A stretch of 34,350 bases of DNA from a virus. This document shows, piece after piece, positions 14,225-34,350 of the stretch. Position 1 is the first letter of the stretch; each line of letters opens with the position of its first letter. Where the stretch lies: the UHGV virus genome UHGV-1648906; one strand, given 5' to 3'. The notes beneath the pieces are model-generated. The model worked only from the letters and a program-made list of their open reading frames with translations, was not told the DNA's origin and made no database searches. The position numbers and the translations under genes are program-made.

Positions 14225-14303
14225 CGCCAGTCGCATTATTTACTTTTGGTCTAAAGGGTTTTTGGCCAGTAATGAGAGCGACCGACAACAACAGGGAGAG
14301 AGC

Positions 14304-15112: not shown

Positions 15113-15113
15113 T

Positions 15114-15523: not shown

Positions 15524-15571
15524 TTAGCGCAATGAATGCGTAGAATTAACGGAAAAAGGAGTTTTCCATCA

Positions 15572-16318: not shown

Positions 16319-16332
16319 ATTGTGATAACCCA

Positions 16333-16360
16333 AGAGGCCCATGGATGGGCCTCTGTATGA
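16333..16360 (+). terminator. probable terminator or attenuator after the major tail gene
   Basis: Stem AGAGGCCCA / TGGGCCTCT (16333-16341, 16346-16354) with 4-nt loop, followed by GTATGAGTTT (weak U-tract). Confidence 0.5.
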
Positions 16361-16379
16361 GTTTAAAAGGATTTAAACC

Positions 16380-17047: not shown

Positions 17048-17054
17048 CAAGGGA

Positions 17055-20000
17055 ATGTCACAAAACGTAGAGTTTATCCTGTCGCTGGAAGACAAACAGT
17101 TTACAGCGTCAATCGATCGTGCGGGGAAACTGCTTACTCGATTTGGTGAGCAGGTAACAAAGCCTGCTCAAAAAATCCAAACCTTTGAACGCTCTTTGGG
17201 TTCGGTCGCCCGTATCATTGGCGTTCTGGAAAGCAAGCTCGATTCTACGGCAGATAAACTACAGGATGTAGCTGCCGGTTTTGAGCTTGCTTCAGATGCT
17301 ACGCGTAAAATGCGTGGCAACATCACCAGCCTCAATTCTGGTCTTAAAGCCCTGATTGAGCGCGTCGATACGACAACTTCTTCAGTAGATAAACTCACCG
17401 CGTCATTACGTAAAGTGCAATCAGAGCTAAATGATTTCTCTGATTGGGCGACCTATGCAAGCAAAAGCGCAAGCCGCTTTGGTACGGAGGTCAAAGAAGC
17501 CTCTGCGTCCGTGAGTGGCATGAATACGCGCCTTAATACCACGACGAAGCGACTCAGTAATTGGGGTGTCACAACGAGTCAGGCTGCCGAGGGACTGAAA
17601 AAGGTTCGTGAGCAGATGGACGAAGTTATCGGACGTCAGCAACTGATTAGCAAGCCGGTACGCGTTCGTACATCTGGAAGTGGCGATGGTGGTAGCGGGC
17701 GGCGTAGCGGCGCTTCTGGCCATAGCGGTAAAAGTAACGAAGGAGGTATGTTCTCTGGCCTTCGTGGCAACATTTTCCTGCTTGGCGAGATCGGAGATGC
17801 AGCCAGAACGGTTACTGACATCATGTTTGGGTGGCAGAAGCCTATTGTTGAAGCTGCGGCCGAAATGGAACGTATGCGGGTGATGCTTCGAGGGTTGAAT
17901 AAGGAGAAGTCCAACCCGGGCCAGGCTGCCGCTGATGATATGAAGTACATCGTAGACATGGCTCAAAATGCGCCGTTCGCGATGCAGGCGTTAACAGACT
18001 CCTTCGTGAAGTTTCGTTCTGCTGGCTTAGATCCAACCGATGGTTCTCTGAAGGCGCTGGTGGACTCCGTTGCTCGTTTTGGTGGTGATAGTGAGCTGTT
18101 GAAACGTGCGGCTGTGGCCGTTCAGCAGATGTCCGGTAAGGGCGTTGTGTCAATGGAAGAGCTACGTCAGCAATTAGGTGAAGCCGTTCCTAACGCGATG
18201 CAGGCAATGGCAGACGCCGCAGGCATCACTATGGGGGAACTGACTAAAGCCGTTGCCAGCGGTACGGTTGAGGCAAAACAGGCGTTGTCTCTGATGTTTG
18301 TTGGTCTGCGTGCGGAGAATGAGAACGCAGCGAAAGACATGATGCAAACCTACACAGGTGCGCTGGCGCAACTTCAGACGTCATTCACGTTATTTGCTGA
18401 TCGGGTTGGTCAGGCCGGATATCTGGATTCTCTATCGAAGGGGATGAAAGAACTGGCTTCAATCATGAATAGCGCCGAAGGGATTTCGTTTGCCAATTCT
18501 TTAGGTTCGGGGTTAACAACGGCAATCGATGGGTTGCGTCAGCTTGCTCAATGGTTAGCAAAGAACCAAGAGCTGGTAATTAATCTCGGTAAGGTCGTGG
18601 CCGCGATGGTTGCGTTCAAACTGATGCGAGCAGGGATCATGGGGGTAGTTGGCGCTGGGAGCCAGATGGTTAGCACCTTTGCCACGATGGCGACCGCCAT
18701 ACAGACTCCATTTAACCTCGGCGCTACAGCAGTAACTCGATTCAATCGTGCGGCACGTATGGGGCTGGCTCCGATCCCCTCTCTTATTTTCGCCATCCGT
18801 GGGGCGATTACGGGGCTTAAAGGCGCTTTTGCTGGATTAACGGCGTTCATTGCAGCAAACCCTATAGGGGCAGCATTTACAGTTGCCACTGTAGCTGTTG
18901 CTGGCCTAATCACGTACATGACCATGCTCCGCAGCGAAACTTCAAAGGTCGTTGACGAGATTAGGAAAATACCAGAAGCGATGACAGCGGCCAAACGTGC
19001 ACAAATGGCCGACCGCGCAGAAAAGCTCGAAAAGCAGATTCTTGCTGATCAACGAGCATTAAAAACTGGTGAGGGTGTTAATTACGTATCTAACTCTGCC
19101 GGTGTTATTACTCACAAAGAGTCGAAGGCTGACATCGAAGCACGCCTGAAAAAAAATCAGGAAGAGTATCAAAAGATAACCGGCACGATAGCTCTTGGTG
19201 ACGGCGCTGTAGCAAAGCGTTTGGCTAAAGAGGCTGCCGAATCTCAGATTGAGAAAATTCGAGCGGAAAACCAGATTTTCGCGGCAACATTCGTGAAAGC
19301 CCGGCAGGAGGCTCTGGATAAGATCCAGAAAATCAATGATGACGGTTCACTTTCAGATGATGAAAAGAACAAGCTATTGGCACCGTTACGTGAAACGGTA
19401 AACAAAAGCTATCTTGAGCCTGCGCAAAAACTGGTTGATTCACTTTCTTCTCGTAAGAATGCGACCGAGAAGCAAATCGCGACTCTTAATGATCAGCTTG
19501 AAAAAGCCAAAAAGGATGGAAATACCGAGCAGATCCAGAAACTGCAAGGCAGTATTCGTGGTTATCAGGAGAATTTGGAAGTCGTCGCTCAGGAACTGAC
19601 TCAGGCAGAGTTCGAGAGAGATAACGCTGCCAAAACTGGTAAGGGCGTAATGTCAAACCAGGGGACTGTTCTGGGGTTAGGTACAACTGATAAAGCTGCT
19701 CAGAAGGCGCTGGCGCAATATATGCGAAACCAGATGGATTCTGCGACTTATCAGCGTACTCTGCCTGACGGCACTCCGATGATGGACTTCGAAGGTAAGC
19801 CGATTATTGGGCCTAAACAACTCAAGACGCAGCTTAATTTGCAGAAAGCATCCAGCGCCAGCTCTCTGGAGAAAATGAGCGATGAAGAGCGTGCCGCAGC
19901 CATTGCTGCACTAACTAAAGCTCGTGAACAGGATGCAGCAGCTGCCGAGAAAGCAGCCCAACGATCAGCTAACGCCTCGCAGCGTGCGGCCAAGAAGGAA

Positions 20001-21578
20001 CAGGCAGCGCAACAGAAATTGGCAGCCGGATACCAGAAGGCTCTGGACAAAGCCGATCAGCTTATGGGGCAAATGGGTGAAAGCTCTAAGGCTACGGTAT
20101 CGTTTGATCAGTCTCTTCGCGATACAACGAAATCGCTGACTGATTTGGCTAATGCGGTTCCTAACGAGTTCATCACTCAAGAGATGATCGACAAGGCGAA
20201 AAAACGTCTTGAAGACCTTAAAAATGCGACACCTGAATATCGCGAGATGTTTAATCGCCGCAATGTTGAGCAGATGATCTCCACTTGGGCACCGGAGGCG
20301 GATTCCATTATTAGTGCTGGCTATACGCCGTCTCGCGAAGAGAAAGTTGCTGATTTCGAAGACACCTACAACCGCAATCTCAAAGCGTTGATAGAACTTC
20401 GTGATAAGGCGTCTGATCCTAAAGTTGTGGCGCTTTATACAAAGAAAATCAATCAACTGATTGCTGCTGGCAATACCGCGCTTATTAAAGAGACGGGGAC
20501 TGCGACGCAGAAGTTGGCTCTGGAGTATGAGAACCTGGCTGAGCAGATTGAGGGCACCTGGACAGATCTGTTTAGCGGCTTAACTGACACGCTTACTGAC
20601 TTTGTTGTTAACGGAAAGATGAGCTTCTCCAGTCTGGCCACATCGATCCTTAAAGACATCACCAACATGGTCGTGAAGACCCAGATCACTCTGCCTCTCA
20701 TGAATATGTTGGGAATGGGAACGACAAACGCCGGCAATGCACAAAGTGGAAATCTCATGAATAGCGTAGCGTCTGCGATCGCTAATCAAGGGGTTCAGCT
20801 AGGTAATTCTGGTGGGTCGGTGGCCAATGGGGATAAATCTGTCGGCGAGGCCACTAAGGAGACAGCCTCCGGCGTGAATTCGATGGGGCAAGCGTCTCAG
20901 AATGCGGCCAGTGGTTTAAGTCAGGCGGTGAATGGCGTCTGGGACTGGACTAAGTCATTGTTCACCGGTACTGACGCTACGAAAGATCAAACCAAAGCGG
21001 TTAACAGCAGCATCCTCAGTATGGGGAATCTGTCTACTGCGGCTGGGGCGCTGGCAGCTACATTCGCCATGGTAGGTGCTTCGTCGTCGAGTTCGTCCAG
21101 CCGTTGGCTGAATTTCGGTCTGTCACTGGCCAGTACCGCAGTGTCCGCCTGGGCTGGGTCTTCGACGCCATCAGGCTCAAAGCCAAATGTGAAGAAGCAC
21201 GCCAATGGCGGCATCTTTGGCAGGGAAGGGGTTGTGCCTCTGAGAGCTTATCAGAAAGGCGGAATTGCCACCTCACCACAGTTGGCGATGTTTGGCGAGG
21301 GCTCAATGAACGAGGCTTACGTTCCGTTGCCAGATGGTCGAACCATTCCAGTCACACTTTCTGCAGAGTCGGCTGGAAAGAGCACGGGTAACGCGGTGTC
21401 CCCTGTCTCGATTCAGATCAATGTAACCAAGGATGGCCGAACCAGCGAGAGCAGCAGTGGAAGCGAGAGCAGTCTCTGGAACGGCGCAGCACGGCAAATC
21501 AAGTCGATTGTGCTTGAGACGATTGCCGAAGAGAAACGTTCTGGTGGTTCACTTAATCCGCATACCACCAGAGGGTAG
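17055..21578 (+). CDS. tail tape measure protein
   Basis: 1507 aa from ATG 17055; long helical/coiled-coil N-terminal part, central hydrophobic Gly/Ala-rich segment (around AAMVAFKLMRAGIMGVVGAGSQ), position after the G/GT chaperones. Confidence 0.9.
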   Translation: MSQNVEFILSLEDKQFTASIDRAGKLLTRFGEQVTKPAQKIQTFERSLGSVARIIGVLESKLDSTADKLQDVAAGFELASDATRKMRGNITSLNSGLKALIERVDTTTSSVDKLTASLRKVQSELNDFSDWATYASKSASRFGTEVKEASASVSGMNTRLNTTTKRLSNWGVTTSQAAEGLKKVREQMDEVIGRQQLISKPVRVRTSGSGDGGSGRRSGASGHSGKSNEGGMFSGLRGNIFLLGEIGDAARTVTDIMFGWQKPIVEAAAEMERMRVMLRGLNKEKSNPGQAAADDMKYIVDMAQNAPFAMQALTDSFVKFRSAGLDPTDGSLKALVDSVARFGGDSELLKRAAVAVQQMSGKGVVSMEELRQQLGEAVPNAMQAMADAAGITMGELTKAVASGTVEAKQALSLMFVGLRAENENAAKDMMQTYTGALAQLQTSFTLFADRVGQAGYLDSLSKGMKELASIMNSAEGISFANSLGSGLTTAIDGLRQLAQWLAKNQELVINLGKVVAAMVAFKLMRAGIMGVVGAGSQMVSTFATMATAIQTPFNLGATAVTRFNRAARMGLAPIPSLIFAIRGAITGLKGAFAGLTAFIAANPIGAAFTVATVAVAGLITYMTMLRSETSKVVDEIRKIPEAMTAAKRAQMADRAEKLEKQILADQRALKTGEGVNYVSNSAGVITHKESKADIEARLKKNQEEYQKITGTIALGDGAVAKRLAKEAAESQIEKIRAENQIFAATFVKARQEALDKIQKINDDGSLSDDEKNKLLAPLRETVNKSYLEPAQKLVDSLSSRKNATEKQIATLNDQLEKAKKDGNTEQIQKLQGSIRGYQENLEVVAQELTQAEFERDNAAKTGKGVMSNQGTVLGLGTTDKAAQKALAQYMRNQMDSATYQRTLPDGTPMMDFEGKPIIGPKQLKTQLNLQKASSASSLEKMSDEERAAAIAALTKAREQDAAAAEKAAQRSANASQRAAKKEQAAQQKLAAGYQKALDKADQLMGQMGESSKATVSFDQSLRDTTKSLTDLANAVPNEFITQEMIDKAKKRLEDLKNATPEYREMFNRRNVEQMISTWAPEADSIISAGYTPSREEKVADFEDTYNRNLKALIELRDKASDPKVVALYTKKINQLIAAGNTALIKETGTATQKLALEYENLAEQIEGTWTDLFSGLTDTLTDFVVNGKMSFSSLATSILKDITNMVVKTQITLPLMNMLGMGTTNAGNAQSGNLMNSVASAIANQGVQLGNSGGSVANGDKSVGEATKETASGVNSMGQASQNAASGLSQAVNGVWDWTKSLFTGTDATKDQTKAVNSSILSMGNLSTAAGALAATFAMVGASSSSSSSRWLNFGLSLASTAVSAWAGSSTPSGSKPNVKKHANGGIFGREGVVPLRAYQKGGIATSPQLAMFGEGSMNEAYVPLPDGRTIPVTLSAESAGKSTGNAVSPVSIQINVTKDGRTSESSSGSESSLWNGAARQIKSIVLETIAEEKRSGGSLNPHTTRG

Positions 21579-21585
21579 TAAAGCA

Positions 21586-21605
21586 GGCCGCCTTAACGGG
21601 CGGCC
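21586..21605 (+). other. GC-rich stem-loop between tape measure and M genes (no U-tract)
   Basis: GGCCGCC-TTAACG-GGCGGCC; possible RNA stability or processing element. Confidence 0.3.
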
Positions 21606-21621
21606 ATCACAAGGAAGTGAT

Positions 21622-21957
21622 ATGTCGAGGAAAGTATTTAATTGGTATCCAGATTATGAGTCTGAGAAAACCGTAAAGCCTAACGTGATCGTGCTGAACT
21701 ACGGCGACGATTACGAGCAGCGCCAGTCGCAGGGGCTCAATCGGATTAAAGAAGAGTGGTCTCTCACGTTCACCCGTAGCCATGACGTGGTAAACGACGT
21801 TGATGACTTTTTGACTGCCCGCGCTGGGGTGGAGTCATTCATTTGGACTAACCCAAGAGGCAAAGCAATTATCGTGGTTTGTGACAGCCATACGGTAAAG
21901 CGTTACCCCGGTTATCAAGTGCTTACGGCAACATTTAGACAGGTTTTTGAGTCTTAA
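21622..21957 (+). CDS. minor tail protein M (lambda gpM-like)
   Basis: 111 aa from ATG 21622 (SD AAGGAAG); motifs NYGDDYEQRQSQGLNRIKEEWSLTF and ESFIWTNP parallel lambda gpM (FGDGYSQR...GLN...SFLWTPP). Confidence 0.85.
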   Translation: MSRKVFNWYPDYESEKTVKPNVIVLNYGDDYEQRQSQGLNRIKEEWSLTFTRSHDVVNDVDDFLTARAGVESFIWTNPRGKAIIVVCDSHTVKRYPGYQVLTATFRQVFES

Positions 21958-21966
21958 CTTGCGACT

Positions 21967-21990
21967 ATAGATAAGTAATTACTTATCTAT
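21967..21990. promoter_or_regulatory. perfect 24-bp palindrome ATAGATAAGTAATTACTTATCTAT
   Basis: Identical on both strands; sits in the M-L intergenic gap directly before a hairpin. Confidence 0.55.
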
Positions 21991-22000
21991 TATCATATAT

Positions 22001-22030
22001 CAACGTCACATCCTGTGACGTTGAGTTTTT
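22001..22030 (+). terminator. terminator-like hairpin inside the tail-tip operon (M-L gap)
   Basis: 10-bp stem CAACGTCACA / TGTGACGTTG with 3-nt loop, followed by AGTTTTT. Confidence 0.5.
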
Positions 22031-22043
22031 CAAGGATGAAGTG

Positions 22044-22742
22044 ATGGGTATTAGAGCTGATATTCAGAGTTTATCGCCTTCTGCGCTCATTGAGTTGTTC
22101 GAGCTGGATATGTCGGTGACAACCTCCGGCGGCAAGTTGTATTTCCATGCCGGCACCAACGGGCTTAGCCAGCCAATTATCTGGCAGGGAGTTTCCTATG
22201 AGCCGTGGCCAATTAAAGCGTCTGGCTTTGATAAAAGCGGTCAGGGAACACTTCCTCGTCCAAAGATTCAGGTTTCCAACTACGACGGTGTAATTTCTGC
22301 CGAGCTGCAGGCCAATGACGATCTGATTGGCTGCAAGATCATTCGCAAGATGACGCTGGCACGTTTTCTGGACGCGGTGAACTTTCCGGATGGAAACCCG
22401 ACCGCAGACCCAAGTCAGCATTTTGCTGATGAAATGTGGTTCGTCGAACAGAAGACCCTGGAGACGCACCAGTATGTCGAATTCGAGCTGTCCAGCGTCT
22501 TAGATCTGATGGGCGTTCAACTGCCGTATCGTCAGATCATCAAAAACAGCTGCCCGTGGAAATATCGCGGAACAGAGTGTGGCTACACCGGCCCCTATTT
22601 CGACAAAAACAACCAGCAAACCTCTTTGGCCGGCGCCGACTACTGCACCAAGCGTTACGACGCCTGTAATGCTCGCCGCAACTACTTCGCGAATGGCGTT
22701 ATTCATTTTGGCGGATTTATTGGGGCGACACGATATGAGTAA
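22044..22742 (+). CDS. minor tail protein L (lambda gpL-like)
   Basis: RFLDAVNFPDGNPTADP matches lambda gpL RFLDAVNFVNGNSYADP; Cys cluster CPWKYRGTECGY...C..RYDAC; SD AAGGA. Confidence 0.85.
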   Translation: MGIRADIQSLSPSALIELFELDMSVTTSGGKLYFHAGTNGLSQPIIWQGVSYEPWPIKASGFDKSGQGTLPRPKIQVSNYDGVISAELQANDDLIGCKIIRKMTLARFLDAVNFPDGNPTADPSQHFADEMWFVEQKTLETHQYVEFELSSVLDLMGVQLPYRQIIKNSCPWKYRGTECGYTGPYFDKNNQQTSLAGADYCTKRYDACNARRNYFANGVIHFGGFIGATRYE

Positions 22743-23532
22743 CCAGACGTTACCTGAGCTGGGCTCAGAAGTCATGCAGGATATCTATCGCTGCGCTATC
22801 CAACGTTACCCGAATGAAGCGTGTGGCTTTCTTGTGCGCACACAGGGTGAGAAATATCGCTTTATGGAAGCGATGAATGTCTCTGAAACGCCACGTGAGG
22901 ATTTTGTCATGCGTGCCAGCGACATTATTGCGGCCGAAGATGCTGGGGAAGTGATCGCTATTTGGCACTCTCACGTTGAGCGCAGCGCAGAGGCGTCAGA
23001 CCCGGATCGCTCCGGGTGCGAGGCGACGGAACTACCGTGGATGATTCTGGCAATTCGCAAAAATGTGGAAAGCGATATGCCATTCCACTTTAGCGAAATG
23101 AACGTCATTTATCCGTGTGGTTTTGAGATGCCCTACCTCGGGCGCCCATACGTATTCGGTGTGTTTGATTGCTGGATGCTGTGCCGCGATTACCTAAAGC
23201 GTGAATTTGACGTTGAGCTGAATGCAAACGCCCACCTGCATATTCCTTCCTGGTACACGGGGGACAACGACATCCTCGACCAGAACTACCGAAATGAAGG
23301 ACTTGTCCGCATGGCGCCGGGGACGGAACCCCAGCGCGGCGACATCTTCTTCATCCAGTACGGGAAAATGCCAGATCACTGCGCGGTATACATCGGCGAC
23401 GGCATGATCATGCATCACCAGATCGACCGTCTCAGCTGTCGGGCTTATTACGGTGGGATGTATCAGAAGCACACGACGCATCACCTGCGTCACAGGGATT
23501 TACTCAAGGGAGACGAGACGTGTCTGAATTAG
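22735..23532 (+). CDS. tail assembly protein K (MPN/JAB domain plus NlpC/P60 domain)
   Basis: MPN-like AIWHSHVERSAEASDPD (H-x-H...S..D); NlpC/P60-like Cys/His segment FDCWMLCRDY ... HCAVYIGDGMIMHH; start overlaps the L gene stop. Confidence 0.85.
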   Translation: MSNQTLPELGSEVMQDIYRCAIQRYPNEACGFLVRTQGEKYRFMEAMNVSETPREDFVMRASDIIAAEDAGEVIAIWHSHVERSAEASDPDRSGCEATELPWMILAIRKNVESDMPFHFSEMNVIYPCGFEMPYLGRPYVFGVFDCWMLCRDYLKREFDVELNANAHLHIPSWYTGDNDILDQNYRNEGLVRMAPGTEPQRGDIFFIQYGKMPDHCAVYIGDGMIMHHQIDRLSCRAYYGGMYQKHTTHHLRHRDLLKGDETCLN

Positions 23533-24131
23533 TTCATGTTCAGCTCGGCGGTGCGATGGCAAAGAACTTTGGCCGCCACTGGAAATTGAAGGTGCGCAAC
23601 ACCAAACAAGCCATCGATTTGATTGAGGCGAATCGCCCGGGCTTTAAAGCCTGGATTAAGCGTAACCGTAACCACTTCGATAAGTACCACATCCAGGTCA
23701 CAAATAAGCAGGGCCACAAGTGGTCAATGGACGACACCGAATACCAGATGATGGGCGAGTCGGAAAATATCGCAAAAATCCGCATTACTCCCGTACCACG
23801 TGGCAGCGGTGGTAAGGCGTTTGGGTGGTTCCAGACTTTCGTTGGCGCCGCGATGATCGCTGTCGGCGCTCTGGCCTCTGGGCTGACTTTTGGTGCGTCT
23901 TCCGCGCTGGTGATGGGAGGGATGTCATTGATGATGGGCGGTGTGTCCATGCTGATTTCGCCGCAGGCATCAAATGCGTCTGTCAGACAGGCGGATAACA
24001 CGGATTCGTTTTATTTCGATGGGCCTCAAAACACCAGCAACCAGGGAAACCCGGTTCAGCTTAATTACGGCGAGGAAATTTTAGTTGGCTCACAGATTGT
24101 GAGTTCTTCAATCACCATAGACCAACTGTAA
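23520..24131 (+). CDS. tail assembly protein I (lambda gpI-like)
   Basis: GTG start with SD AAGGGAG; C-terminal glycine-rich hydrophobic segment GAAMIAVGALASGLTFGASSALVMGGMSLMMGG; position between K and J. Confidence 0.75.
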   Translation: MSELVHVQLGGAMAKNFGRHWKLKVRNTKQAIDLIEANRPGFKAWIKRNRNHFDKYHIQVTNKQGHKWSMDDTEYQMMGESENIAKIRITPVPRGSGGKAFGWFQTFVGAAMIAVGALASGLTFGASSALVMGGMSLMMGGVSMLISPQASNASVRQADNTDSFYFDGPQNTSNQGNPVQLNYGEEILVGSQIVSSSITIDQL

Positions 24132-24141
24132 GGGAAGTTTT

Positions 24142-25740
24142 TTGAACATGTATCAGTTCAAGAAAAAGAGATTGCCCCTCCTGATTGCGGGAGCGGGCGG
24201 CAAAAAGAGCTCAGGCTCAAGCCGTACACCAGTTGAAGCGGATGATACCGTTAATTCGCGGGCCATGGCGTCTATCCTCGATCTGCTCGGGGAAGGTGTT
24301 GTTGGTGGGCTTATTAACGGTGCTAAATCTATCTTCATCGATGGCGTGGCGCTGGAGAACGAAGACGGATCATTCAACTATTCCGGTGTAACCTGGGATT
24401 TCCGGGATGGTTCACAAGACCAAAGCCCGATGCCTGGTTTCGATTTTGTCGAAACGCCAAAGGCCGTTAACACACAGCTGAAAACCACAAACGCGGTTAC
24501 GGTCGCCATCGATAACGACGACGCTGATCGTGTCCGAGTGATCATGAAGTTCCCGTCGCTGCGTAGCATTGACAAGAAAACAGGGGACACAAACGGTACT
24601 TCTGTCCAGTTTAAGTTCCAGCTGGCCAATGGCAATGGCTCTTTCTATGACGTGATTGCTACAGGTGAGAGCAGCTCTGACGTGAAGCTGACTGCGAAAA
24701 AGACTGGTGTCTACTACCGCAGTTACGAAATCCAACTTCCAAAGCCTGGGCGCGCCTATAAAGTGCGCGTGCTTCGTCTCTCCGCCGACAGCAACGATCA
24801 GTATCTCTTTAACGATACCTGGGTCGACTCTATCGGTGAGATCGTTGACACCCCAATGAACTACCCGAACTCCGTTCTGGTTGGCCTTAAGGTTAACTCT
24901 GAGCAGTTTGGTAGCTCTATGCCGTCACGTTCGTATCTTATCCGTGGCCTCAAAATCCGTGTGCCTTCGAATTATGATGAAAATACGAACACTTATAACG
25001 GCGTTTGGGATGGAACCTTTAAGCTTCTGTCGTCTTCCAACCCTGCCTGGATTCTGTTCGATCTGCTGACCAATGCTCGTTACGGCCTCGGCAAATTTGT
25101 TTCGGAGTCAATGATTGACCTTGGCCAGCTTTATCAGATCGGTCGCTACTGCGACGAAGAGGTTGATGATGGCTTTGGCGGCAAAGAAAAACGCTTTGCA
25201 ATCAACACCCAGATCACCAGTCGTCAGGACGCTTATCGTCTGATTCAGGATATTGCCGGCGCTTTCCGTGGCATGGTTTTCTGGGCTGGTGGTATGGTGA
25301 ATATCATGCAGGACAGCCCGTCTGACCCTGTCATGCTCTTTACCAATGCGAACGTAAAAGATGGCCTGTTTACCTATAAAGGCTCAGCTCGAAAAGACCG
25401 GCCGTCCGTAGCGTTGATCACTTATAACAACAAACAAGACGGCTATAAGCAGAACGTTGAGTATGTTGAAGATCAGGAAGCGATGGCCCGATACGGGGAG
25501 CGCAAGACCGAGGCCGTTGCGTTCGGGTGCACCAGCCGAGGTCAGGCTCATCGTGTAGGTTTGTGGCTGCTCTATACCGCGCGTATGGAGTCAGACATGA
25601 TCACCTTTACCGCGGGCCTGGACGCCTCGTTCCTGATGCCGGGCGAAACCGTTCTGATTCAGAACAAATATCGTGCCGGCAAACGCAATTCCGGTCGCAT
25701 TGTCTCTCGATGCACCTGTCTCTCTGAAAAAGAGCGGTAG
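24142..25740 (+). CDS. host specificity (tip attachment) protein J-like, N-terminal part; reading frame ends prematurely after an apparent frameshift
   Basis: Recalled lambda J similarity: GVTWDFRDGSQDQSPMPGFD, PNSVLVGLKVNSEQFGS, FGCTSRGQAHRVGLWL, KYRAGKRNSGRI; the frame-1 stop at 25738-25740 follows a short out-of-frame tail (SRCTCLSEKER). Confidence 0.85.
   Translation: MNMYQFKKKRLPLLIAGAGGKKSSGSSRTPVEADDTVNSRAMASILDLLGEGVVGGLINGAKSIFIDGVALENEDGSFNYSGVTWDFRDGSQDQSPMPGFDFVETPKAVNTQLKTTNAVTVAIDNDDADRVRVIMKFPSLRSIDKKTGDTNGTSVQFKFQLANGNGSFYDVIATGESSSDVKLTAKKTGVYYRSYEIQLPKPGRAYKVRVLRLSADSNDQYLFNDTWVDSIGEIVDTPMNYPNSVLVGLKVNSEQFGSSMPSRSYLIRGLKIRVPSNYDENTNTYNGVWDGTFKLLSSSNPAWILFDLLTNARYGLGKFVSESMIDLGQLYQIGRYCDEEVDDGFGGKEKRFAINTQITSRQDAYRLIQDIAGAFRGMVFWAGGMVNIMQDSPSDPVMLFTNANVKDGLFTYKGSARKDRPSVALITYNNKQDGYKQNVEYVEDQEAMARYGERKTEAVAFGCTSRGQAHRVGLWLLYTARMESDMITFTAGLDASFLMPGETVLIQNKYRAGKRNSGRIVSRCTCLSEKER
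25695..25712 (+). other. frameshift junction within the J-like gene (TCTCTC dinucleotide run)
   Basis: Frame 1 reads GRIVSRC then stops; frame 2 reads LSLDAPVSLKKSGSFIRI and continues as the J-like protein; the sequence at the junction is GTCTCTCGATG. Confidence 0.6.
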
Positions 25741-28700
25741 CTTCATCCGTATCATCAATCAGGAAGGCAAAATCGTTGAGCGAGACATCAACGAGACCGG
25801 CGACAACATCACTAAAGTTACCTTCAAGACGGCGTTGGCCACAGCCGATCAACCAGTAGCGAATGGCGTCTGGACGATCACCGAACCAGACCTTGTTCCA
25901 ATGCGGGCGCGCGTTGTCGCTATCGCGCAAGGTGAAACCCCGGGGTCGTTTGATATCACGGTGGTGCAGAACAATGCATCTAAGTACCAGGCGATTGATA
26001 ACGGGGCCGCGCTCGTTCCAGAAAATACGACGGTTCTTGATCCCACATATTCCAAACCGAGCAACCTGGTCATCTCAGAAGGCACCTATCTGTCCAGTCC
26101 GGGCAACTTGTCCGTGAAGCTGATGCTTGCCTGGGAAGGTAAATCACCAGAATACTGGGTCAGCTGGCGCCGCTCCGACGAGGGCAACGTCTCCAACTGG
26201 CAATCTGCCCGCGCCACGGAAGAACAATATGAAATCGTCAATGTTGCCGAAAATGGGCGATATGACTTCCAGCTGTATTCCGTTTCCTTCGGCGGCAAAA
26301 AATCCGAGATCATTACTGCTGTCTATCAGGTAAAAGGCACGATGACGCCGCCAGGGGCGCCCACATCACTCACCGCGGTGGGGGATTATCGTAACGTGGT
26401 ATTGAATTGGGTTAACCCTGATTCAGTCGACCTCGCGCAGATCAACGTGTATGCGTCCAAAACAAATAAGCTGGACACCGCAACACTCATTGCTCAGGCT
26501 GCAACAACGACTTTCACTCACGCTGGCCTGGGTGACAACGAGACCTGGTATTACTGGATTCGTGCGGTAAACAAACGTGGGATGGTAGGCCAGCCGAACT
26601 CGAACCTCGGTACAGAGGCCACCACTCGCGACGTATTGTCTTTCCTGAAAGATAAGATCACATCTTCTGAACTCGGCAAGGAGCTGCTCGACGAAATCGA
26701 CAGCAAAGCCACTCAGGAGGCGGTAGACAACGCCATTGGCGAGGTTCAGAACTCAGTCAACGAGTCTATCCAGCAAGTTGAAAACGATCTGGCGCAAACC
26801 TCCTCCGAAATTAAGGCGCAGGTTGACTCTGTCAATCAGTCGCTGAAAGAGGATATAAAGACCGTCAATCAGACGATTGTTGACAACATCGATACCGTCA
26901 ACCAGACGATCAATACCAACATCTCCAACGTAAACAGCCAAATTGAAGCTGCAAAACAGTCTATTAAAGACGGCGACGCGGCTCTGTCGCAGGAGATTAA
27001 GAATGCGCAGTCATCACTGACAACGTCGCTGTCCCAGACCAGCAAAGATCTGACTGCGGCCATTCAGAAAGAGACGAATGACCGTATTGCAGATGTTAAT
27101 GACGCAGCCAAGCAAGCGGCCGACCAACTGCTGAGCGCGAAGAATGAGCTGAAAACCTCTATCGATAGCTTGTCTGAGGTTGTGACCTCCGGTGACGAAA
27201 ACCTCGCGCGACAGATCTCGCAGATTGCCGCTGGCACAGGGGAACAGTTTGACTCTCTGAAAATCTGGTATTTCGACCAGGACGCTGAAGGCTGGACGGA
27301 AGATGATAATGGCTACACGCCAATGAGCGTCACCAGCGATGGCTGGCTGAAAGCGAACAATCCGACCTCAACCTGTCGTTCCCCTAACGGCTTGACGATC
27401 GATGCCCATGCTTATCGTTTCATTAAGATGCGCATTAAAAAGGTTGGCAACCCAACCTGGAACGCCAAAATGTTCTGGATCGGCGCTGATGAAACCGGCT
27501 GGAATGCTGGTCGCTCCGTGGTTATCAATGAACCGGAATACGATGACAAGGGTATTGCGATTCTGACCCTGCACGACATTGAGTGGCGAGATTCGACAAC
27601 GATTCGTCGTTTCCGCTTCGATTTCACTTCAGGTCAGGATGCGGACAATTACCTGTTATTCGACTGGATCGCCGTCGGTCGACCGACGCCGGGCGCAGGC
27701 ATGGCCGCGTTACAGGAAGAGCAGCAGGCTCGTGCGAATGCAGATACCGCCGAAGCGCAGGCGCGCAGCACATTGGCTGCACAAATCCGCGGTTCCTCTG
27801 AAAGCGGAAATCTGGACGACATTCGCTCCGGTCTGATCTATCAGGAGAAAAATGCTCGTATCACCGCCGATGCTGCGGAAGCGAGTGCGCGTGAATCCCT
27901 GCAGACTGAATTCAACAGAAACAAAGCCTCTGTTGCAGAAGAGCTGCATACGCTGTCCACTGAACAAGCTTCCCAGGCAAGCAAGATTACCGGGTTGCAA
28001 ACAAGCCTTGGCCAGAAGGCCGATGCCAGTGCAGTACAGACAATTTCCCAGAAGGTTGAAGAGCAGGGCAACACCCTTAAATCACAAGGTGCGGCATTGT
28101 CTACGCTGGATAATCGCGTAGGAAGTGTTGAGTCTGGTGTGTCTGCGAATAGCAAGGCGATCACGGGTCTGCAGTCGACCGTAACCCAGCAGGATAAAAC
28201 CCTTAGCAGCCAGAGTGAAAGCATCACCACCCTGAATAACTCGCTGAGCGATATCCAGAGCGATACCGATACTGCCAAAAGCAATCCGAGCAATTTGCTG
28301 GTTAACGCCTCCTTTGAGCGTGACCTGGCAGGGTGGTCTGCAGGGAACAGCGTATCCAATGTTATCAAAGCGAGTGCGCCCCATTCTGGTAGCAAAATTC
28401 TTGTTTGCGCCGCTGGCACGGTGCAAATCACGCAATCTGTAAGCGTCGTCGAAGGGCGGACATACAAGCTGTCCTCTTTTGTGCGCTGCACCACGGATGC
28501 GGTAATCAGCAGCCCTGGCAACAACAAACTGCGTATTGGCGCAGCCACGTTGCTCAAAGAGATTCCGATCCGTCCGGAGAATCTGCCCAAAGATGAAACA
28601 TGGAAAGAGATCTCTGATACCTGGAAGGCGACGCTGACCGGTAAAGTTGACGTATCGATCATGTCTTCTCTCAAAACCGGTTCTCAGTACTTCGATGATA

Positions 28701-31700
28701 TTGGTTTTGTTGACGTCACTGATGCTCTGGCGATTGAGGCGAACGCCAGTGCCACCAATGCTTTGACCTCTCGGGTATCGTCTGTTGAGGGCACCATCAC
28801 AAGTCAGGGGCAACAGATCACTTCGATGCAGAACAGTATCAAGAACAAAGCTGACGCCTCAGCTGTGACTAATCTGACAAACCGCGTAACTGCTGCCGAA
28901 AATCAGATCTCCAGCCAGTCCCAGAGCATCACCAGCCTGTCAAATTCGCTGGATAACGCCAATGCTGATGCGGATGCCTCGAAAGCGATCATCGGCAACA
29001 TGCTCAAAAACAACTCTTTTGAACGTGGTTTCGAAGGTTGGGAGTATGTTGGTTGGACTCTGCTGGAGGCCCAAAACCCCAAATCGGGGAAATACATCAT
29101 CCAGGCGGGCAAACTGGCCTCTGGCGGTGACTCGGGCTGCAACCAAACGATCGAGCTGCAGGCTGGCAAGACTTATCGTATCGGCGCATGGGTTCGCAAA
29201 TCCGCTGACTTCGCGATCAATAATGCCGGCAACAACAAAATTAGCCTTCGAAACGCAGATCTGACGCCGATAAAGGATATCCCGATCACTGGCGCTGGGC
29301 TGTCGACGAACTGGGCGCTTATTAGCGGCGAGTATACGCCAGCCAAAACCGCCAGCGTGGTTGTGTCTCTGCGTGCAAGTGTCGCTTCCGGCTATATGTA
29401 TCTCGATGACGTCTTCTGCGTTGACGTGAGCAATGAGAAAGCGATTGATGCGACGTCCAATGCGTTATCAACCCTCAACAGCACCGTGACCCAGCAGGGA
29501 AAAGACATTACGTCTAACTCCAACAGCATCACTTCGCTGTCAAACCAGATGGTTAACGGCCGCCAGAACATGTGGGTGCGTAGCGTATACAACGTACAAC
29601 TGGCGAACAATACCACTGAGCCGACCTTTAGCGATATCAACGGTAAGGCGCCAATCTCGATCGATGAGGTTCCTGACGCGGCAAAACTGGACTTTGCGAG
29701 CGCCGGCAGTTACGTGATCGCGCATTACAAAGCCTTCGTGAAAGTCAATGCTGATACCACCATCACTATGGCACCAGGGGCTCGTGTTTTTGATGATACG
29801 GGCGCCGTGTACGTGAACGGTGTTAGGGTTGCCTTTGGTAATGCGAGCTGGAATACGGTTAGCTTTGATCTGAAAGCTGGCTGGAGCACGGTTGAGTTCT
29901 TGGTGAACCAATGGACTGGTCAGGCTTACATTAACCTCGGCTTTAAACTGTCCGAGAAGGTAGCCCAGCTGAATTCTGCTCTTGGGATGAACGCGCTTTC
30001 GAATGCCATTAGCGCCGTCACCTCAAACGTCAGCACCGTAGGTGATCGCGTCACGAGCACCTCACAGAGCGTTACTGACCTGCGAAATAGCCTCGAACAG
30101 ACCAACGCAAATCTAGCGAATAAGGCAGATGCACAGGCGCTGTCTACGCTGCAAAATACGGTCTCCAAGCAGGGGGATACGATTTCCAGCCAGGGTAACA
30201 GCATCACGAACCTGAATAACACCCTGACCGCTGCCAGAAACGCCGGTGACAACCTGATCCCGAACTACGATTTCCTGCAGGGTGCAACTGCGTGGGATAC
30301 CCAGTATCCGGCGGGCGTCACTTTCGGCAACTTCGGTGATGGTAAGGCTGGGGTTAAGCTGAACCGGACGACCACTACCAGCCCAGGCATCTTCTCCAAC
30401 AACAACAAGCCGCTGCCGCTTAATGGTCAGCGCAAATATCGTGTTGTGGTTAAAGCCAAGGGCGTGTCCGGGGCGATGAACATGTTGATCCGGCGCCAGA
30501 ACAAAATCGGCCAGACCGACAGCAATTATGAAGATAAAAACGTCACACTCACCAGTGAGTGGCAGACCATTACCTGGGAAACTGGGCTTACTGCCTCTAA
30601 CGCTGATGGCCAGAACTTTAAGCTTTACGCGCACCCGGCTAATGCCGAAATCTGGGTTGATACCTTTAAGGTCTTTGATATCACGGATGAGGTGAAGATC
30701 AAGGCTAATAGCGATGCGCTGTCTACGTTGTCGAGCACGGTGACGCAGCAGGGTGACAAGATCACCAGTCAGGGCAACAGCATCACTAAGTTGACCAATG
30801 ACCTCGAAGTCGCTGACGCAAACATCGCGAAAAAGGCCGATCAGTCGGCAGTCACTACGCTGACAGGTCGGGTAGAGAAGACGGAGTCCGGTCTGACGGC
30901 GGCGAACAGCAACATTACGTCGCTCAGCAGCTCTCTGAACCAGCAATCCAAACGCGGCGCCAATCTGCTTCCTGATGGCACTTTTGAAAGCTACGCGGTT
31001 GGCCATAATCTATCAAATAATCGCGTTATCGTGACCACTGATGACTCGCATGGCGGTAGTAAGTGCATCCGTGTGACGCGTCCGAATGATTACAACGCTA
31101 ACGCAACTGATAACAGCGATAATCACATTTTCAGCGGGTTCCAGGTTCGCGATAACGCAGTCTTCTATATGGAATGCTGGGTTAAGCTGGATGCCAAGAG
31201 CACCGCTATGGCCGAGAATGCGCAGATCTCCATTGGCTTGTCGCTCCAGTATCAGGATAACTCCTGGCAGTGGCCAGCAGTAACCAAAGCGGCGAAAGAT
31301 CTGTCTACAGCTCAATGGACGAAGGTTTCTGGTTACCTGAAATCAACGAAGAGCGGTATTAAGCAGGCAATGGTGAGGATTTCTATTCCTAACGTTAGCA
31401 GCGTTAAGGCGGGAAACTCATTCCTCATTGATGACCTGGTCATTACCGAAGTGACTGATGCCTACAATGCGCAAAGTACAGCAGACGCTAATGCCAATGC
31501 GATTTCGACACTGGACTCGACCGTCTCCCAACAGGGTGACCAGATCACCAGTCAGGGTAACAGCATCACCAAACTGACAAATGACCTGGCAACGACCAAT
31601 AACAACGTCAGTAAAAAAGCGGATCAGAGCGCTTTAAGCGTGTTGTCCGGGCGCGTCGATCAAACAGAATCGGGCTTATCCTCTGCGAATAGCAGTATCA

Positions 31701-34350
31701 CTGCGCTTAATTCATCTGTACGCGCAGGGAATGCGACAAGTGGCGATTTGATTAGCAACCCGACATTTGACCCAGAGTTTAGTCAGATGGGCTTCACTGT
31801 GGTTTCCAGCTCGTCTGAGGGCGTGCCAGCCAATTGCCCATACGCTTATGTTGCACGCATTGCGGCTCGCGACCATCACCCCAATTTTGCTGCTATTCCG
31901 GCGACATTGGGGGATGTCTATGAAATGTCTGCTCTCGTCGCGTGTGGCACCGGCTCCGCTGATTTCAACCTGTATCTCGGAACCGCAACACGGCCAAGCG
32001 GCAGCATGGGCGCGCCTCTGTCATCCGGCGGCAACCGCAAGGCGTCGGCCACATGGCAGCGAGTAACCTGGCGATTCAAAATTACTCAGGGGATTGTCGA
32101 TCGCGGCTTCTTCCGTCCATTCCTGCAAATTAACCAGTCCAGCCCATTCGGCACCGTCTGGTATGTGACTGACTGGCATCTGCGGAACGTAACCGACTCC
32201 TCCAAAGTCCAGGATTCCCTCGACGCCACGGCGAAAGCGGTTGATTCGCTGACCTCTACGGTAAATCAGCAGGGGGAGAATATCTCCAGCATTGGTACAC
32301 GTACTACCAATCTTGAGAATAATTTGAGAACAACAAATGCAAACGTTGCTCAAAAAGCGGACGCCAATGCTCTGACGGCACTGACCAACCGTGTTACCCA
32401 GACCGAAAAAGACATTAACTCAACGAGTTCTTCTGTCACGAATCTGAACAACAAGGTTGATGCCATTTCTGTTGGCGGTACAAACCTGATTAAGAACTCT
32501 GGCGATATGACCGGCTGGTCGAACGTTACCAGCGACACGTATCGTGGTAACGCGGTAATTGGCGCAACTGTAAAAGCCGGCTCCGGCTACAAGGATCTGC
32601 GGGAAATCACGCTTGAGTCGCCGGTCGATGCAGGTGAGTACGTTTACAGCTTCTATGCAAAAGGCGGTGTTGCTGGCCAGATTATGACGGCGTTCTTCTA
32701 CAATCCGAACACTACAACGTCTATCGAGACCAGCCAGGGTGCGAAAGGTAACAACAGTGATGGCCGTGCGCAGTTCACGCTGACCACTTCATGGTCCCGC
32801 TATTGGGTTAAGTGGAAACAGACACCTACCACGAGTACCAAGCGCCTGATTCTGTGTCGTATCGAGAGCAATACCTCCAAAGACCAGACGGTGTACATCA
32901 ACAGTCCGAAGTTTGAGGTAGGTAACGTTGTTTCCGACTGGAACGAGTCTCCGTCTGATAGTGCCAGTGCGTCGGCTGTGGACTCGCTGACAACGAAAGT
33001 GAATCAGCAGGGCACTTCCATTAGCTCTATCGGAAATCGCACCACATCGTTGGAAAACGGGTTATCGACAGCTCAAAACAACATTGCCAAGAAGGCTGAT
33101 GCTTCTGCATTGCAGGATCTCCGGAACACGGTGACATCTCAGGGTGATGATTTAACTGCGGCGAACAGCAGCATTACCAGCCTGCATGCCTCGATGAACC
33201 GTCGCACTGTGTTTACTGTCACTGCACGGGGTAATGGCAACAGCGTTACCCATGGGGTGTTTGATGAAAGCGGCAAGAACCTGTTTACCCCTGGTCGCAG
33301 TTGGGCGCTGGTCACTTTTGCAAAACACAGCGATGGATCAACGGTGATTGCGACCTCCAAAACATACGATGTCTTTGGCAGCGCGAATAATGGCGCCACG
33401 ATGTCGGCCGATATCGAGGCGTTGGCCAGTGGGACTTACGTTTGTGTCCTGACATTCGATGAGCCAACTGGCAACCGAGGTAAGGTATTGTCTGCCCTGG
33501 AATCTCTTGGTGGTACATCCGAAATCGTCAACTCTCTGCCGTATCGTGGTGCCTATATTCTTCTTGGCCGCAAAGGCATGAAGCCGGGCGATGGTCTGGA
33601 ACTTCGTGCGCCTACCGGTGGCGACGGCACCGCCCACATTTCGACCTCAGTCGAGTTTGTGAACGGGGTAATGATGGGACTGGGCGCCGCCGGCGGTGTG
33701 ATGATGAAGGCTGATGCGAACGCGTCGGCAATTACCACGCTCCAGAACACAGTGAAGACCCAGGGGGATAATATTGACTCCCTGAGCTCCTCGACAACGG
33801 CGCTGGAAAATAGCCTTGCGTCCAGTAAAGCCAGCGTGGATGCAGCAAGCCAGATCCCCGGGAATCTGATCGTAAACCCGTCTTTTGAACGTGGTACGGA
33901 GGGCTACACTGGTTGGAGCGGTATTGCCACGGTGGCAACGCTGCAGGTTCCACATCTTGGCACCAAAGCCGCCAAACTAGCGGCGGGTGGTTCTGCAGGC
34001 GTGGGCCAGAAGATCTCCTTCAAAAAGGATCGGTCGTACAAAATTGGTATTTGGGCAAAGCAGGACCCTAATACCACCATTCAGTCGACCGACAACACAA
34101 AATTCCGTGTGGCTGACGGTACTGGCCTGATTGCAAGTAAGGTTTATGGTCCGTTCACCTCGAACTGGCAGGAGGTGTCATGGACATGGAAGGCGACAAA
34201 GGATGTCCTTGCTGACGTTCAGTTCACTGCTTTCTTGTCAGCCGGCGCGATGTACTTTGATGATTTTTACGTCGTCGATGTGACCGACTCAGTTGAAACT
34301 CAGGCGAACTCGAGTGCGATCACGAAGCTCGATAGTCGTGTGACCAAGAC
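25700..34350 (+). CDS. continuation of the J-like host specificity protein, fused to a giant central tail fibre (partial, open to window end)
   Basis: Frame 2 has no stop from 25658 to 34350; contains a fibronectin-III-like segment and the lambda J-like motif KITSSELGKELL (26650-26700), then coiled-coil linker repeats and beta-sandwich modules. Not in the ORF track because it lacks a stop in the window. Confidence 0.8.
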   Translation, partial: MSLDAPVSLKKSGSFIRIINQEGKIVERDINETGDNITKVTFKTALATADQPVANGVWTITEPDLVPMRARVVAIAQGETPGSFDITVVQNNASKYQAIDNGAALVPENTTVLDPTYSKPSNLVISEGTYLSSPGNLSVKLMLAWEGKSPEYWVSWRRSDEGNVSNWQSARATEEQYEIVNVAENGRYDFQLYSVSFGGKKSEIITAVYQVKGTMTPPGAPTSLTAVGDYRNVVLNWVNPDSVDLAQINVYASKTNKLDTATLIAQAATTTFTHAGLGDNETWYYWIRAVNKRGMVGQPNSNLGTEATTRDVLSFLKDKITSSELGKELLDEIDSKATQEAVDNAIGEVQNSVNESIQQVENDLAQTSSEIKAQVDSVNQSLKEDIKTVNQTIVDNIDTVNQTINTNISNVNSQIEAAKQSIKDGDAALSQEIKNAQSSLTTSLSQTSKDLTAAIQKETNDRIADVNDAAKQAADQLLSAKNELKTSIDSLSEVVTSGDENLARQISQIAAGTGEQFDSLKIWYFDQDAEGWTEDDNGYTPMSVTSDGWLKANNPTSTCRSPNGLTIDAHAYRFIKMRIKKVGNPTWNAKMFWIGADETGWNAGRSVVINEPEYDDKGIAILTLHDIEWRDSTTIRRFRFDFTSGQDADNYLLFDWIAVGRPTPGAGMAALQEEQQARANADTAEAQARSTLAAQIRGSSESGNLDDIRSGLIYQEKNARITADAAEASARESLQTEFNRNKASVAEELHTLSTEQASQASKITGLQTSLGQKADASAVQTISQKVEEQGNTLKSQGAALSTLDNRVGSVESGVSANSKAITGLQSTVTQQDKTLSSQSESITTLNNSLSDIQSDTDTAKSNPSNLLVNASFERDLAGWSAGNSVSNVIKASAPHSGSKILVCAAGTVQITQSVSVVEGRTYKLSSFVRCTTDAVISSPGNNKLRIGAATLLKEIPIRPENLPKDETWKEISDTWKATLTGKVDVSIMSSLKTGSQYFDDIGFVDVTDALAIEANASATNALTSRVSSVEGTITSQGQQITSMQNSIKNKADASAVTNLTNRVTAAENQISSQSQSITSLSNSLDNANADADASKAIIGNMLKNNSFERGFEGWEYVGWTLLEAQNPKSGKYIIQAGKLASGGDSGCNQTIELQAGKTYRIGAWVRKSADFAINNAGNNKISLRNADLTPIKDIPITGAGLSTNWALISGEYTPAKTASVVVSLRASVASGYMYLDDVFCVDVSNEKAIDATSNALSTLNSTVTQQGKDITSNSNSITSLSNQMVNGRQNMWVRSVYNVQLANNTTEPTFSDINGKAPISIDEVPDAAKLDFASAGSYVIAHYKAFVKVNADTTITMAPGARVFDDTGAVYVNGVRVAFGNASWNTVSFDLKAGWSTVEFLVNQWTGQAYINLGFKLSEKVAQLNSALGMNALSNAISAVTSNVSTVGDRVTSTSQSVTDLRNSLEQTNANLANKADAQALSTLQNTVSKQGDTISSQGNSITNLNNTLTAARNAGDNLIPNYDFLQGATAWDTQYPAGVTFGNFGDGKAGVKLNRTTTTSPGIFSNNNKPLPLNGQRKYRVVVKAKGVSGAMNMLIRRQNKIGQTDSNYEDKNVTLTSEWQTITWETGLTASNADGQNFKLYAHPANAEIWVDTFKVFDITDEVKIKANSDALSTLSSTVTQQGDKITSQGNSITKLTNDLEVADANIAKKADQSAVTTLTGRVEKTESGLTAANSNITSLSSSLNQQSKRGANLLPDGTFESYAVGHNLSNNRVIVTTDDSHGGSKCIRVTRPNDYNANATDNSDNHIFSGFQVRDNAVFYMECWVKLDAKSTAMAENAQISIGLSLQYQDNSWQWPAVTKAAKDLSTAQWTKVSGYLKSTKSGIKQAMVRISIPNVSSVKAGNSFLIDDLVITEVTDAYNAQSTADANANAISTLDSTVSQQGDQITSQGNSITKLTNDLATTNNNVSKKADQSALSVLSGRVDQTESGLSSANSSITALNSSVRAGNATSGDLISNPTFDPEFSQMGFTVVSSSSEGVPANCPYAYVARIAARDHHPNFAAIPATLGDVYEMSALVACGTGSADFNLYLGTATRPSGSMGAPLSSGGNRKASATWQRVTWRFKITQGIVDRGFFRPFLQINQSSPFGTVWYVTDWHLRNVTDSSKVQDSLDATAKAVDSLTSTVNQQGENISSIGTRTTNLENNLRTTNANVAQKADANALTALTNRVTQTEKDINSTSSSVTNLNNKVDAISVGGTNLIKNSGDMTGWSNVTSDTYRGNAVIGATVKAGSGYKDLREITLESPVDAGEYVYSFYAKGGVAGQIMTAFFYNPNTTTSIETSQGAKGNNSDGRAQFTLTTSWSRYWVKWKQTPTTSTKRLILCRIESNTSKDQTVYINSPKFEVGNVVSDWNESPSDSASASAVDSLTTKVNQQGTSISSIGNRTTSLENGLSTAQNNIAKKADASALQDLRNTVTSQGDDLTAANSSITSLHASMNRRTVFTVTARGNGNSVTHGVFDESGKNLFTPGRSWALVTFAKHSDGSTVIATSKTYDVFGSANNGATMSADIEALASGTYVCVLTFDEPTGNRGKVLSALESLGGTSEIVNSLPYRGAYILLGRKGMKPGDGLELRAPTGGDGTAHISTSVEFVNGVMMGLGAAGGVMMKADANASAITTLQNTVKTQGDNIDSLSSSTTALENSLASSKASVDAASQIPGNLIVNPSFERGTEGYTGWSGIATVATLQVPHLGTKAAKLAAGGSAGVGQKISFKKDRSYKIGIWAKQDPNTTIQSTDNTKFRVADGTGLIASKVYGPFTSNWQEVSWTWKATKDVLADVQFTAFLSAGAMYFDDFYVVDVTDSVETQANSSAITKLDSRVTK
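27700..34350 (+). repeat. array of at least ten paralogous coding repeat units (coiled-coil linker type) within the fibre gene
   Basis: Peptide pattern A-x-S-T-L-x-S-T-V-T-Q-Q-G-D-x-I-T-S-Q-G-N-S-I-T-x-L-x-N; the DNA units at 30721-30810 and 31501-31590 are highly similar by eye, with identical runs such as GATCACCAGTCAGGG. Confidence 0.8.

Follow-up and report, generated by a model that had tools for sequence, protein, structure and literature searches.

The window analysed here is the whole 34,350-nucleotide (nt) stretch of the viral genome UHGV-1648906, in which the region under study (24142-34350) displays 97-99% identity to ~110-kb Klebsiella phage-plasmids of the SSU5 type (pKpn-type), i.e., pJN2-26, ST13-OXA48phi12.3, vB_Kpn_1825-KPC53 and vB_KpnS_p4727, together with ~300 IncFIB plasmids. 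The nearest relative, pECAZ155_2, is colinear with the window at 98.9% identity and carries the gene of interest intact. Upstream, a tail-tip block on the + strand (17034-24131) follows the gene order annotated in pJN2-26, and a giant gene lies directly 3′ of the tape measure, M, L, K and I genes, therefore occupying the position of lambda J. Other genes of the window encode a repressor, helicase, ParB, terminase, portal and capsid (PHROG/Pfam scan). The region is probably a gpJ-type tip-attachment and central-fibre gene of an SSU5-like Klebsiella phage-plasmid, with a stalk interspersed with binding-type modules, and broken in this copy by a deletion.

The N-terminal frame displayed the hub domains FNIII-A_GpJ (PF24801, residues 103-237) and Phage-tail_3 (PF13550, residues 359-521), with 112.4 and 113.9 bits, respectively, in 24142-25737, and the region matched PHROG 2589 and PHROG 31 ‘central tail fiber J’, the former (profile length 3686) with 2927 bits. 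The first-pass annotation described a protein open without a stop for more than 8.6 kb; such a frame exists, since 2897 codons are stop-free, but it does not run as one open reading frame (ORF) from 24142, as the N-terminal fragment ends at a TAG and the remainder lies in a +1 frame that overlaps the first by only ~80 nt. The length of this open frame is not due to chance, given a probability of (61/64)^2897 ~ e^-139. The single frame break is also the sole point from which several separate small genes, instead of one protein, could be argued, and, with this open frame and with single annotated coding sequences (CDSs) of 3796-4052 aa in the relatives, that reading is extremely improbable.

Five relatives carry the gene as one intact CDS (4052, 4045, 4033, 3863 or 3796 aa). 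The N-terminus of an intact relative matched the lambda J structure (PDB 8iyk_J, E=7e-129) up to residue ~860, and the C-terminus of pECAZ155_2 matched PDB 8xcj_Z (E=4e-14). When placed on intact relatives, the window ends ~1.9 kb before the stop codon of the gene; past this end, they encode the linker L9, a carbohydrate-binding module (CBM)-like module (M10), another helical segment and the C-terminal end of J. The true C-terminus was expected beyond the window, and there the J tip-fibre domain was found, with residues 3765-3894 of pJN2-26 matching PF09327 Phage_Tail_Tip (143 bits). Since lambda J matches at both ends, the modular array is an expansion inside J and not a fibre fused to its end, so that the earlier proposal of J fused to a modular fibre stands for the modular stalk but not for the fusion.

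Ten modules (M0-M9) were counted in the window (Table 1), against the six or seven proposed earlier, and M10 is the eleventh. The quoted motifs were all recovered, each 4 nt from where it had been placed: KITSSELGKELL at 26654, SFERDLAGWS at 28310, SFERGFEGWE at 29015 and SFERGTEGYTGWS at 33881, with the four closing signatures at 28688, 29396, 31421 and 34250. Pfam was run module by module, and the whole-protein scan missed CBM_4_9 entirely; with gathering scores of 25.9 bits for PF02018 CBM_4_9 and 27 bits for PF15711 ILEI, domain annotation agreed with the CBM proposal in that four modules (M1, M2, M4 and M9) pass the CBM_4_9 threshold. The beta-jelly-roll of the CBM_4_9 fold was superposable on solved CBMs, and both M7 and M9 matched ligand-bound CBM structures; M7 also matched BppA (5e7t_B) structurally. 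Note that M7 variants were picked by module label, as BLAST-based extraction was contaminated by linker-driven matches. M0, without a Pfam family, matched residues 525-617 of the ‘megatron’ protein of roseophage R4C, which lie in a domain that its authors name carbohydrate-binding (PMC10276861). The PF02018 search of M0, M3, M6, M7 and M8 returned no match, and neither M3 nor M7 gave a significant match when its sequence was searched in the PDB.

As regards M3, the AlphaFold2 (AF2) model, built with only four sequences, displayed eight strands at a predicted local distance difference test score (pLDDT) of 59.8, and Foldseek tentatively related this low-confidence model to N-terminal sugar-binding domains of glycoside hydrolase family 2 (GH2) and to PA14 domains through weak matches (E~1e-4); its Pfam match to Cadherin-like (18.4 bits) remained under threshold. 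Profile-profile comparison gathered M1, M2, M4 and M9 with types X4, X7 and X9, and linked to them a second group of M5, M6 and M10 with X6 and X8, while M0, M3, M7, M8 and X3 remain separate by sequence. According to these results, most modules belong to the CBM4/9/16/22-like jelly-roll superfamily, with one of ILEI type and one that may be PA14-like.

It should be noticed that M8 places an ILEI (interleukin-like EMT inducer) domain within a phage tail protein. Certain fragments of the gene go under ‘interleukin-like EMT inducer domain-containing protein’ in NCBI, and no literature pairing the ILEI domain name with phage tails was found.

Between the modules, repeats were located by BLAST of the chopped translation against itself (self-BLASTP of the whole 2897 aa gave the identity match only), and this comparison confirmed that conserved linkers, recurring every 200-260 aa, alternate with dissimilar modules. 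The linkers (34-90 aa) contain no Pro, 0-2 aromatic residues and 38-50% S/T/N/Q. A hydrophobic periodicity of 11/3, and not 3.5, was observed for CC1, L1 and L3-L7, at a power reached by only 0-8 of 2000 shuffles; the same test found no 11/3 signal in CC2. CC1 also holds a 33-nt (11-aa) tandem repeat (1.9 copies, 26861-26923) that fits this hendecad periodicity, and its Pfam matches are weak and below gathering (Apolipoprotein, 29.5 vs 90 bits; SF-assemblin, 18.4 vs 30.6 bits), while CC2 displayed a SlyX match at p2 residues 818-873 (39.6 bits, gathering 30) with no single stretch passing. In both AF2 models, which are monomer predictions, long helices flank the beta-strand block. With helix, regular hydrophobic periodicity and absence of Pro, the linkers are helical coiled-coil-type stalk segments. 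The coiled coil assigned earlier to 26.6-28.1 kb is likewise helical, but consists of two stretches split by the globular M0.

Table 1. Features of the tail-tip block and of the J gene, in window coordinates
Feature	Position	Strand	Basis or remark
Tape measure gene	17034-21578	+	Pfam; order as annotated in pJN2-26
M-like gene	ends 21957	+	Pfam; order as annotated in pJN2-26
L gene	22041-22742	+	Pfam; order as annotated in pJN2-26
K gene, JAB+NlpC/P60	22735-23532	+	Pfam; order as annotated in pJN2-26
I gene	23520-24131	+	Pfam; order as annotated in pJN2-26
J N-terminal fragment, frame 1	24148-25740	+	~530 aa; TAG stop 25738-25740
Stop-free frame 2, rest of J gene	25658-34348	+	2897 codons; runs off window end
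23-bp deletion site (TTCACCAAAAACAGCATCACCCT or equivalent register)	25705-25708		Alignment with pJN2-26 and p4727
J middle part, fibronectin type III (FN3)-like segment, ends in KITSSELGKELL motif	25706-26662	+	PDB lambda J match; motif location
CC1, 200-aa helical stalk segment	26663-27262	+	Hendecad periodicity; 0/2000 shuffles reach 11/3 power
M0, globular, related to roseophage R4C ‘megatron’ carbohydrate-binding domain	27263-27715	+	PDB 8gtc_M, E=1.5e-5
CC2, 190-aa helical stalk segment	27716-28285	+	Last ~90 aa resemble later linkers (self-BLAST)
M1, CBM_4_9-type	28286-28729	+	PF02018, 34.7 bits
L1, linker of two ~44-aa units	28730-28984	+	Self-BLAST; hendecad periodicity
M2, CBM_4_9-type	28985-29443	+	PF02018, 38.5 bits
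L2, short one-unit linker	29444-29545	+	Self-BLAST; helix in AF2 model
M3, beta-rich, possibly PA14- or GH2-N-terminal-like (tentative)	29546-29977	+	AF2, Foldseek
L3 linker	29978-30244	+	Continuous helix 169-267 in AF2 model; hendecad periodicity
M4, CBM_4_9-type	30245-30697	+	PF02018, 29.3 bits
L4 linker	30698-30952	+	Self-BLAST; crossover mapping; hendecad periodicity
M5, CBM-like	30953-31465	+	PF02018, 23.5 bits, just under gathering score; hhalign 98% with M10 type
L5 linker	31466-31735	+	Self-BLAST; crossover mapping; hendecad periodicity
M6, no Pfam family	31736-32203	+	hhalign 87% with M5
L6 linker	32204-32467	+	Self-BLAST; helix in AF2 model; hendecad periodicity
M7, CBM-type beta-jelly-roll, widespread family	32468-32953	+	Structural matches
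L7 linker	32954-33196	+	Self-BLAST; AF2 model; hendecad periodicity
M8, ILEI-type	33197-33709	+	PF15711, 42.3 bits alone, 37.6 in whole protein
L8, short linker	33710-33850	+	Self-BLAST
M9, CBM_4_9/CBM16-type	33851-34291	+	PF02018, 39.0 bits; PDB 2zew, family-16 CBM, E=2e-8
L9, linker start, cut by window end	34292-34350	+	Segmentation; relatives

Using DNA comparison with related elements, we found that exactly M4 is missing from pKqs_SB610_2 and exactly M5 from a K. oxytoca IR5392 plasmid, and that type X3 stands in the place of M6 in pJN2-26, FDAARGOS_631 and pM72-2-2. The N15-like phage 48ST307, built on a different backbone and with a J N-terminus only ~33% identical, carries M5, M7 and M8 at 92-94% nt identity and lacks M6, M5 being joined directly to M7. 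All breakpoints of these four DNA-level events fall in linkers, and the crossovers of both deletions (that of M4 being located in L3) lie in the same linker core, the codons for QQGDxITSQGNSIT. On a larger scale, segmentation of 123 family proteins yielded 17 module types (from all-vs-all clustering of dereplicated modules) in 29 module orders, which, checked module by module, include double deletions, an M4-M4 duplication (M4 being duplicated in P0065), block duplications (e.g., [M6-X4-M3]x2) and full re-orderings. In addition, the identity to most relatives is mosaic by segment, with 97-100% in the 5′ part and 93-96% across M7-M9. Both the cassette system shuffled at linker repeats and the module gain or loss among related phages, as anticipated by the first-pass annotation, are borne out by these whole-module deletions, duplications, swaps and re-orderings. 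No invertase or reverse transcriptase was found among the window genes scanned with PHROGs/Pfam, a scan that took in part of the ORFs, without a dedicated search and with the downstream genes outside the window.

The gene is split into two frames because the window copy carries a 23-bp deletion compared to its relatives, which have GRIVSFTKNSITLDAPVSL at this site. A 2-bp CT microhomology borders the deletion, which puts the downstream sequence into the +1 frame after ~codon 520 and removes 8 codons of a conserved J domain. The 23 extra bases were spanned in all inspected relatives (six full-length phage records and the nearest plasmid); a 70-nt junction probe gave 316 plasmid matches, those listed all aligning in two pieces that span 93 nt, and for 15 complete E. 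coli genomes with the plasmid, all twelve matches listed span the extra 23 bp. Upstream of the break, the first frame starts at ATG 24148, the annotated start in pJN2-26, whereas the ORF listing gives TTG 24142 (532 aa). Thus, the single uninterrupted frame typical of lambda gpJ is found in the relatives but not in the window copy, and the protein of more than 3400 aa announced earlier is a property of the relatives, as the copy sequenced here does not encode it. This copy appears to be a disrupted gene whose predicted product is only the ~530-aa N-terminal fragment, and no functional tail tip would be expected from an element carrying it.

Could a functional product still be made from the downstream part, by programmed +1 recoding or from an internal start? 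The frame overlap holds GAA-AAA-GAG-CGG-TAG, in which a +1 slip on AAA is conceivable. However, the relatives need no recoding, the shift was created by a deletion that also takes conserved-domain codons, and a slip product would exchange ~15 conserved residues; moreover, no Shine-Dalgarno-like sequence was found upstream of any frame-2 start-like codon, and, judging from lambda J structures, a fragment devoid of the hub could not join the tail tip. We consider such rescue highly improbable, and both programmed frameshifting and internal re-initiation were rejected on the origin of the shift in a deletion and the lack of a Shine-Dalgarno-like sequence.

Concerning the mechanism, the stalk between the J hub/FN3 part and the C-terminal fibre/tip has been expanded to ~2,900 aa in this lineage. 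If J trimerises as lambda J does, the linkers would assemble into a trimeric coiled-coil rod, for which ~1,130 helical residues would give ~170 nm when fully extended, with three copies of each module per level along the rod. The modules may bind capsular or O-antigen polysaccharides weakly and multivalently, and once attached would keep the virion in place and lead the tip of J across the capsule towards a receptor in the outer membrane. Recombination at the linker repeats, inside one gene as well as with other phages of Klebsiella, would alter the set of glycans and consequently the host range. A bolder version is tentative and rather doubtful: a rod about as long as the tail, with eleven exchangeable lectin modules acting as a combinatorial ‘glycan reader’ that allows capsule passage independently of depolymerases and sets K/O specificity, the linker cores serving as recombination joints through which sets of modules pass between unrelated backbones (SSU5-like, N15-like and others).

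Alternatively, the modules could be structural only, i.e., non-binding knobs of a spacer that sets length or stiffness and thereby lets the J tip cross a thick capsule down to the outer membrane. A long module-free stalk is viable by itself, as the E. coli relative PhiR41_1 shows, and the arrays are conserved at 97% among ~300 plasmids. Nevertheless, coiled coil by itself would suffice to make a spacer, as PhiR41_1 illustrates, and the passing of the curated CBM_4_9 threshold by four modules, the ligand-bound CBM structures matched by M9 and M7 and the phage domain matched by M0, which its authors assigned to carbohydrate binding, all argue against this explanation, which is unlikely. Even less probable, and very unlikely in our view, is that some modules are enzymes such as capsule depolymerases: these are commonly carried by Klebsiella phages (PMC13123978), and the weak structural matches of M3 fall within glycoside hydrolases, but these matches concern the non-catalytic GH2 N-terminal sugar-binding domains and PA14 lectin domains, the Pfam search of the modules revealed no catalytic family, and they are only ~145-170 aa long.

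Several points weigh against the interpretation of J as a stalk with exchangeable binding modules. Beta-sandwich domains of binding type, as first proposed, hold for the fold class of most modules, but M3 was modelled at low confidence and M6, without a Pfam family, is tied in only by the 87% hhalign match; in addition, CBM-like folds also serve roles other than sugar binding. Linker DNA copies within one gene are only 60-75% identical, so that recombination between them should be infrequent, and most close relatives keep the same array, at 97% identity, which is therefore not rapidly variable. Module variation may have arisen slowly or, for the most part, through exchange from phage to phage, and the module differences are the outcome of occasional recombination rather than of a fast switch. 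Finally, the 23-bp gap might stem from faulty assembly or sequencing, and the window copy would then be intact. Indeed, the gap is absent from every inspected relative, and other database copies are fragmented for technical reasons, as in CP050287.1 with its seven 1-nt deletions. However, a clean loss between 2-bp microhomologies in non-repetitive sequence does not resemble the usual homopolymer or repeat-collapse error, and its flanks are otherwise 99-100% identical to the relatives; the lesion also differs from the scattered changes of CP050287.1. We regard an artefact as less likely than a genuine deletion.

A frequent pseudogenisation of the gene in other plasmids was also considered and dropped, since both assessable cases were technical: the seven 1-nt deletions of CP050287.1 are scattered, and the gene of pNH25.3 is intact and crosses the record origin. 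Homologues listed in the protein collection do not exceed 3544 aa and many are ‘partial’, despite the intact 3796-4052-aa CDSs in RefSeq, and much of this database fragmentation of the giant gene seems artefactual.

When compared to known systems, the gene shares with lambda gpJ its position after M-L-K-I, a homologous N-terminal part of ~860 aa and, in intact relatives, a homologous C-terminal fibre segment with PF09327. In contrast, lambda J has 1132 aa, whereas here ~2,900 aa of stalk with 11 modules separate the FN3 part from the C-terminal fibre; the final ~125 aa, presumably those that bind the receptor, do not match the lambda sequence, and the window copy is frameshifted. The J protein of the E. 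coli SSU5-like PhiR41_1 (1535 aa) displays the same backbone, the same C-terminal fibre and 73% identity over residues 1-1040 including CC1, but its stalk consists of ~500 aa of repeat-rich coiled-coil-like sequence without globular modules; this module-free stalk could be either what the Klebsiella array evolved from or a reduced form of it. In the PhiR41_1 record, the gene lies at 12007-16614, and its stalk is made of ~33-aa repeats resembling DISAAIRTEQSARASANETLSKQITQLESKV.

The giant J proteins of other Klebsiella phages (N15/phiKO2-like 48ST307, 3193 aa; Kpn74, 3088 aa) display the same linker-module design on different backbones, with N-terminal J parts only ~33% identical and with module sets and orders that differ. 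Trimeric autotransporter adhesins possess long trimeric coiled-coil stalks with non-heptad periodicities, repeated globular binding domains and variation by repeat recombination; their stalks interrupted by globular domains resemble the present one by analogy only, as they are bacterial surface proteins with a membrane anchor. Gram-positive siphophages carry CBM jelly-rolls on Dit/Tal and on Tal extensions, with modules shared like LEGO bricks (PMC7291167), and carbohydrate-binding accessories have been described in the R4C tail tip (PMC10276861). Evolved Dit/Tal proteins and BppA of Tuc2009 thus resemble the present J in that CBM-type jelly-rolls are grafted onto conserved tail-tip proteins; however, theirs are one or few CBMs, usually in Dit/Tal loops, whereas here ~eleven tandem modules sit on a coiled-coil rod, in a lambda-type J of a Gram-negative temperate phage that has kept its tip domain. 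Full-text searching, which did not cover the phiKO2 genome paper, found no description of the linker-module array or its recombination, and databases hold the family as ‘phage tail tip fiber protein’, ‘DUF1983 domain-containing protein’ or PHROG 2589. This striking architecture is widespread and has been little described; it extends familiar principles.

The family was present in hundreds of Klebsiella plasmids, in prophages, in 15 complete E. coli genomes and on three or more phage backbones. The record of the nearest relative, pECAZ155_2, is itself labelled E. coli. A Klebsiella-type plasmid in E. coli genomes suggests either transfer of the element between genera or mislabelling of some strains.

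Elsewhere in the window, an Ig-domain structural protein of 306 aa with three Big_2-like repeats is encoded 3′ of the major capsid gene (11992-12912, +), while its pJN2-26 orthologue has 142 aa and one repeat; a second protein of the virion surface thus varies in its number of repeats. At the DNA level, no tandem repeat was detected in this gene (11992-12912). In addition, two neighbouring ORFs (4591-6143, +), adjoining the ParB-like and helicase genes, matched PHROG ABC-transporter ATP-binding proteins (moron category).

The host range of Klebsiella phages is central for phage therapy and for the spread of phage-plasmids carrying resistance. Capsule depolymerases are the usual explanation of how hosts are recognised in Klebsiella, and the present gene offers instead a very long J fibre with many lectin-type modules. 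What mediates the capsular specificity of Klebsiella prophages when depolymerases are rare is posed as an open question in PMC13123978, and the glycan-reader model, if true, would help to explain it. The frameshifted copy provides a concrete case of a phage-plasmid whose infectivity may be lost although it persists as a plasmid. Altogether, the linker-bounded modules constitute a natural and already-recombining parts list that could be drawn on for host-range engineering.

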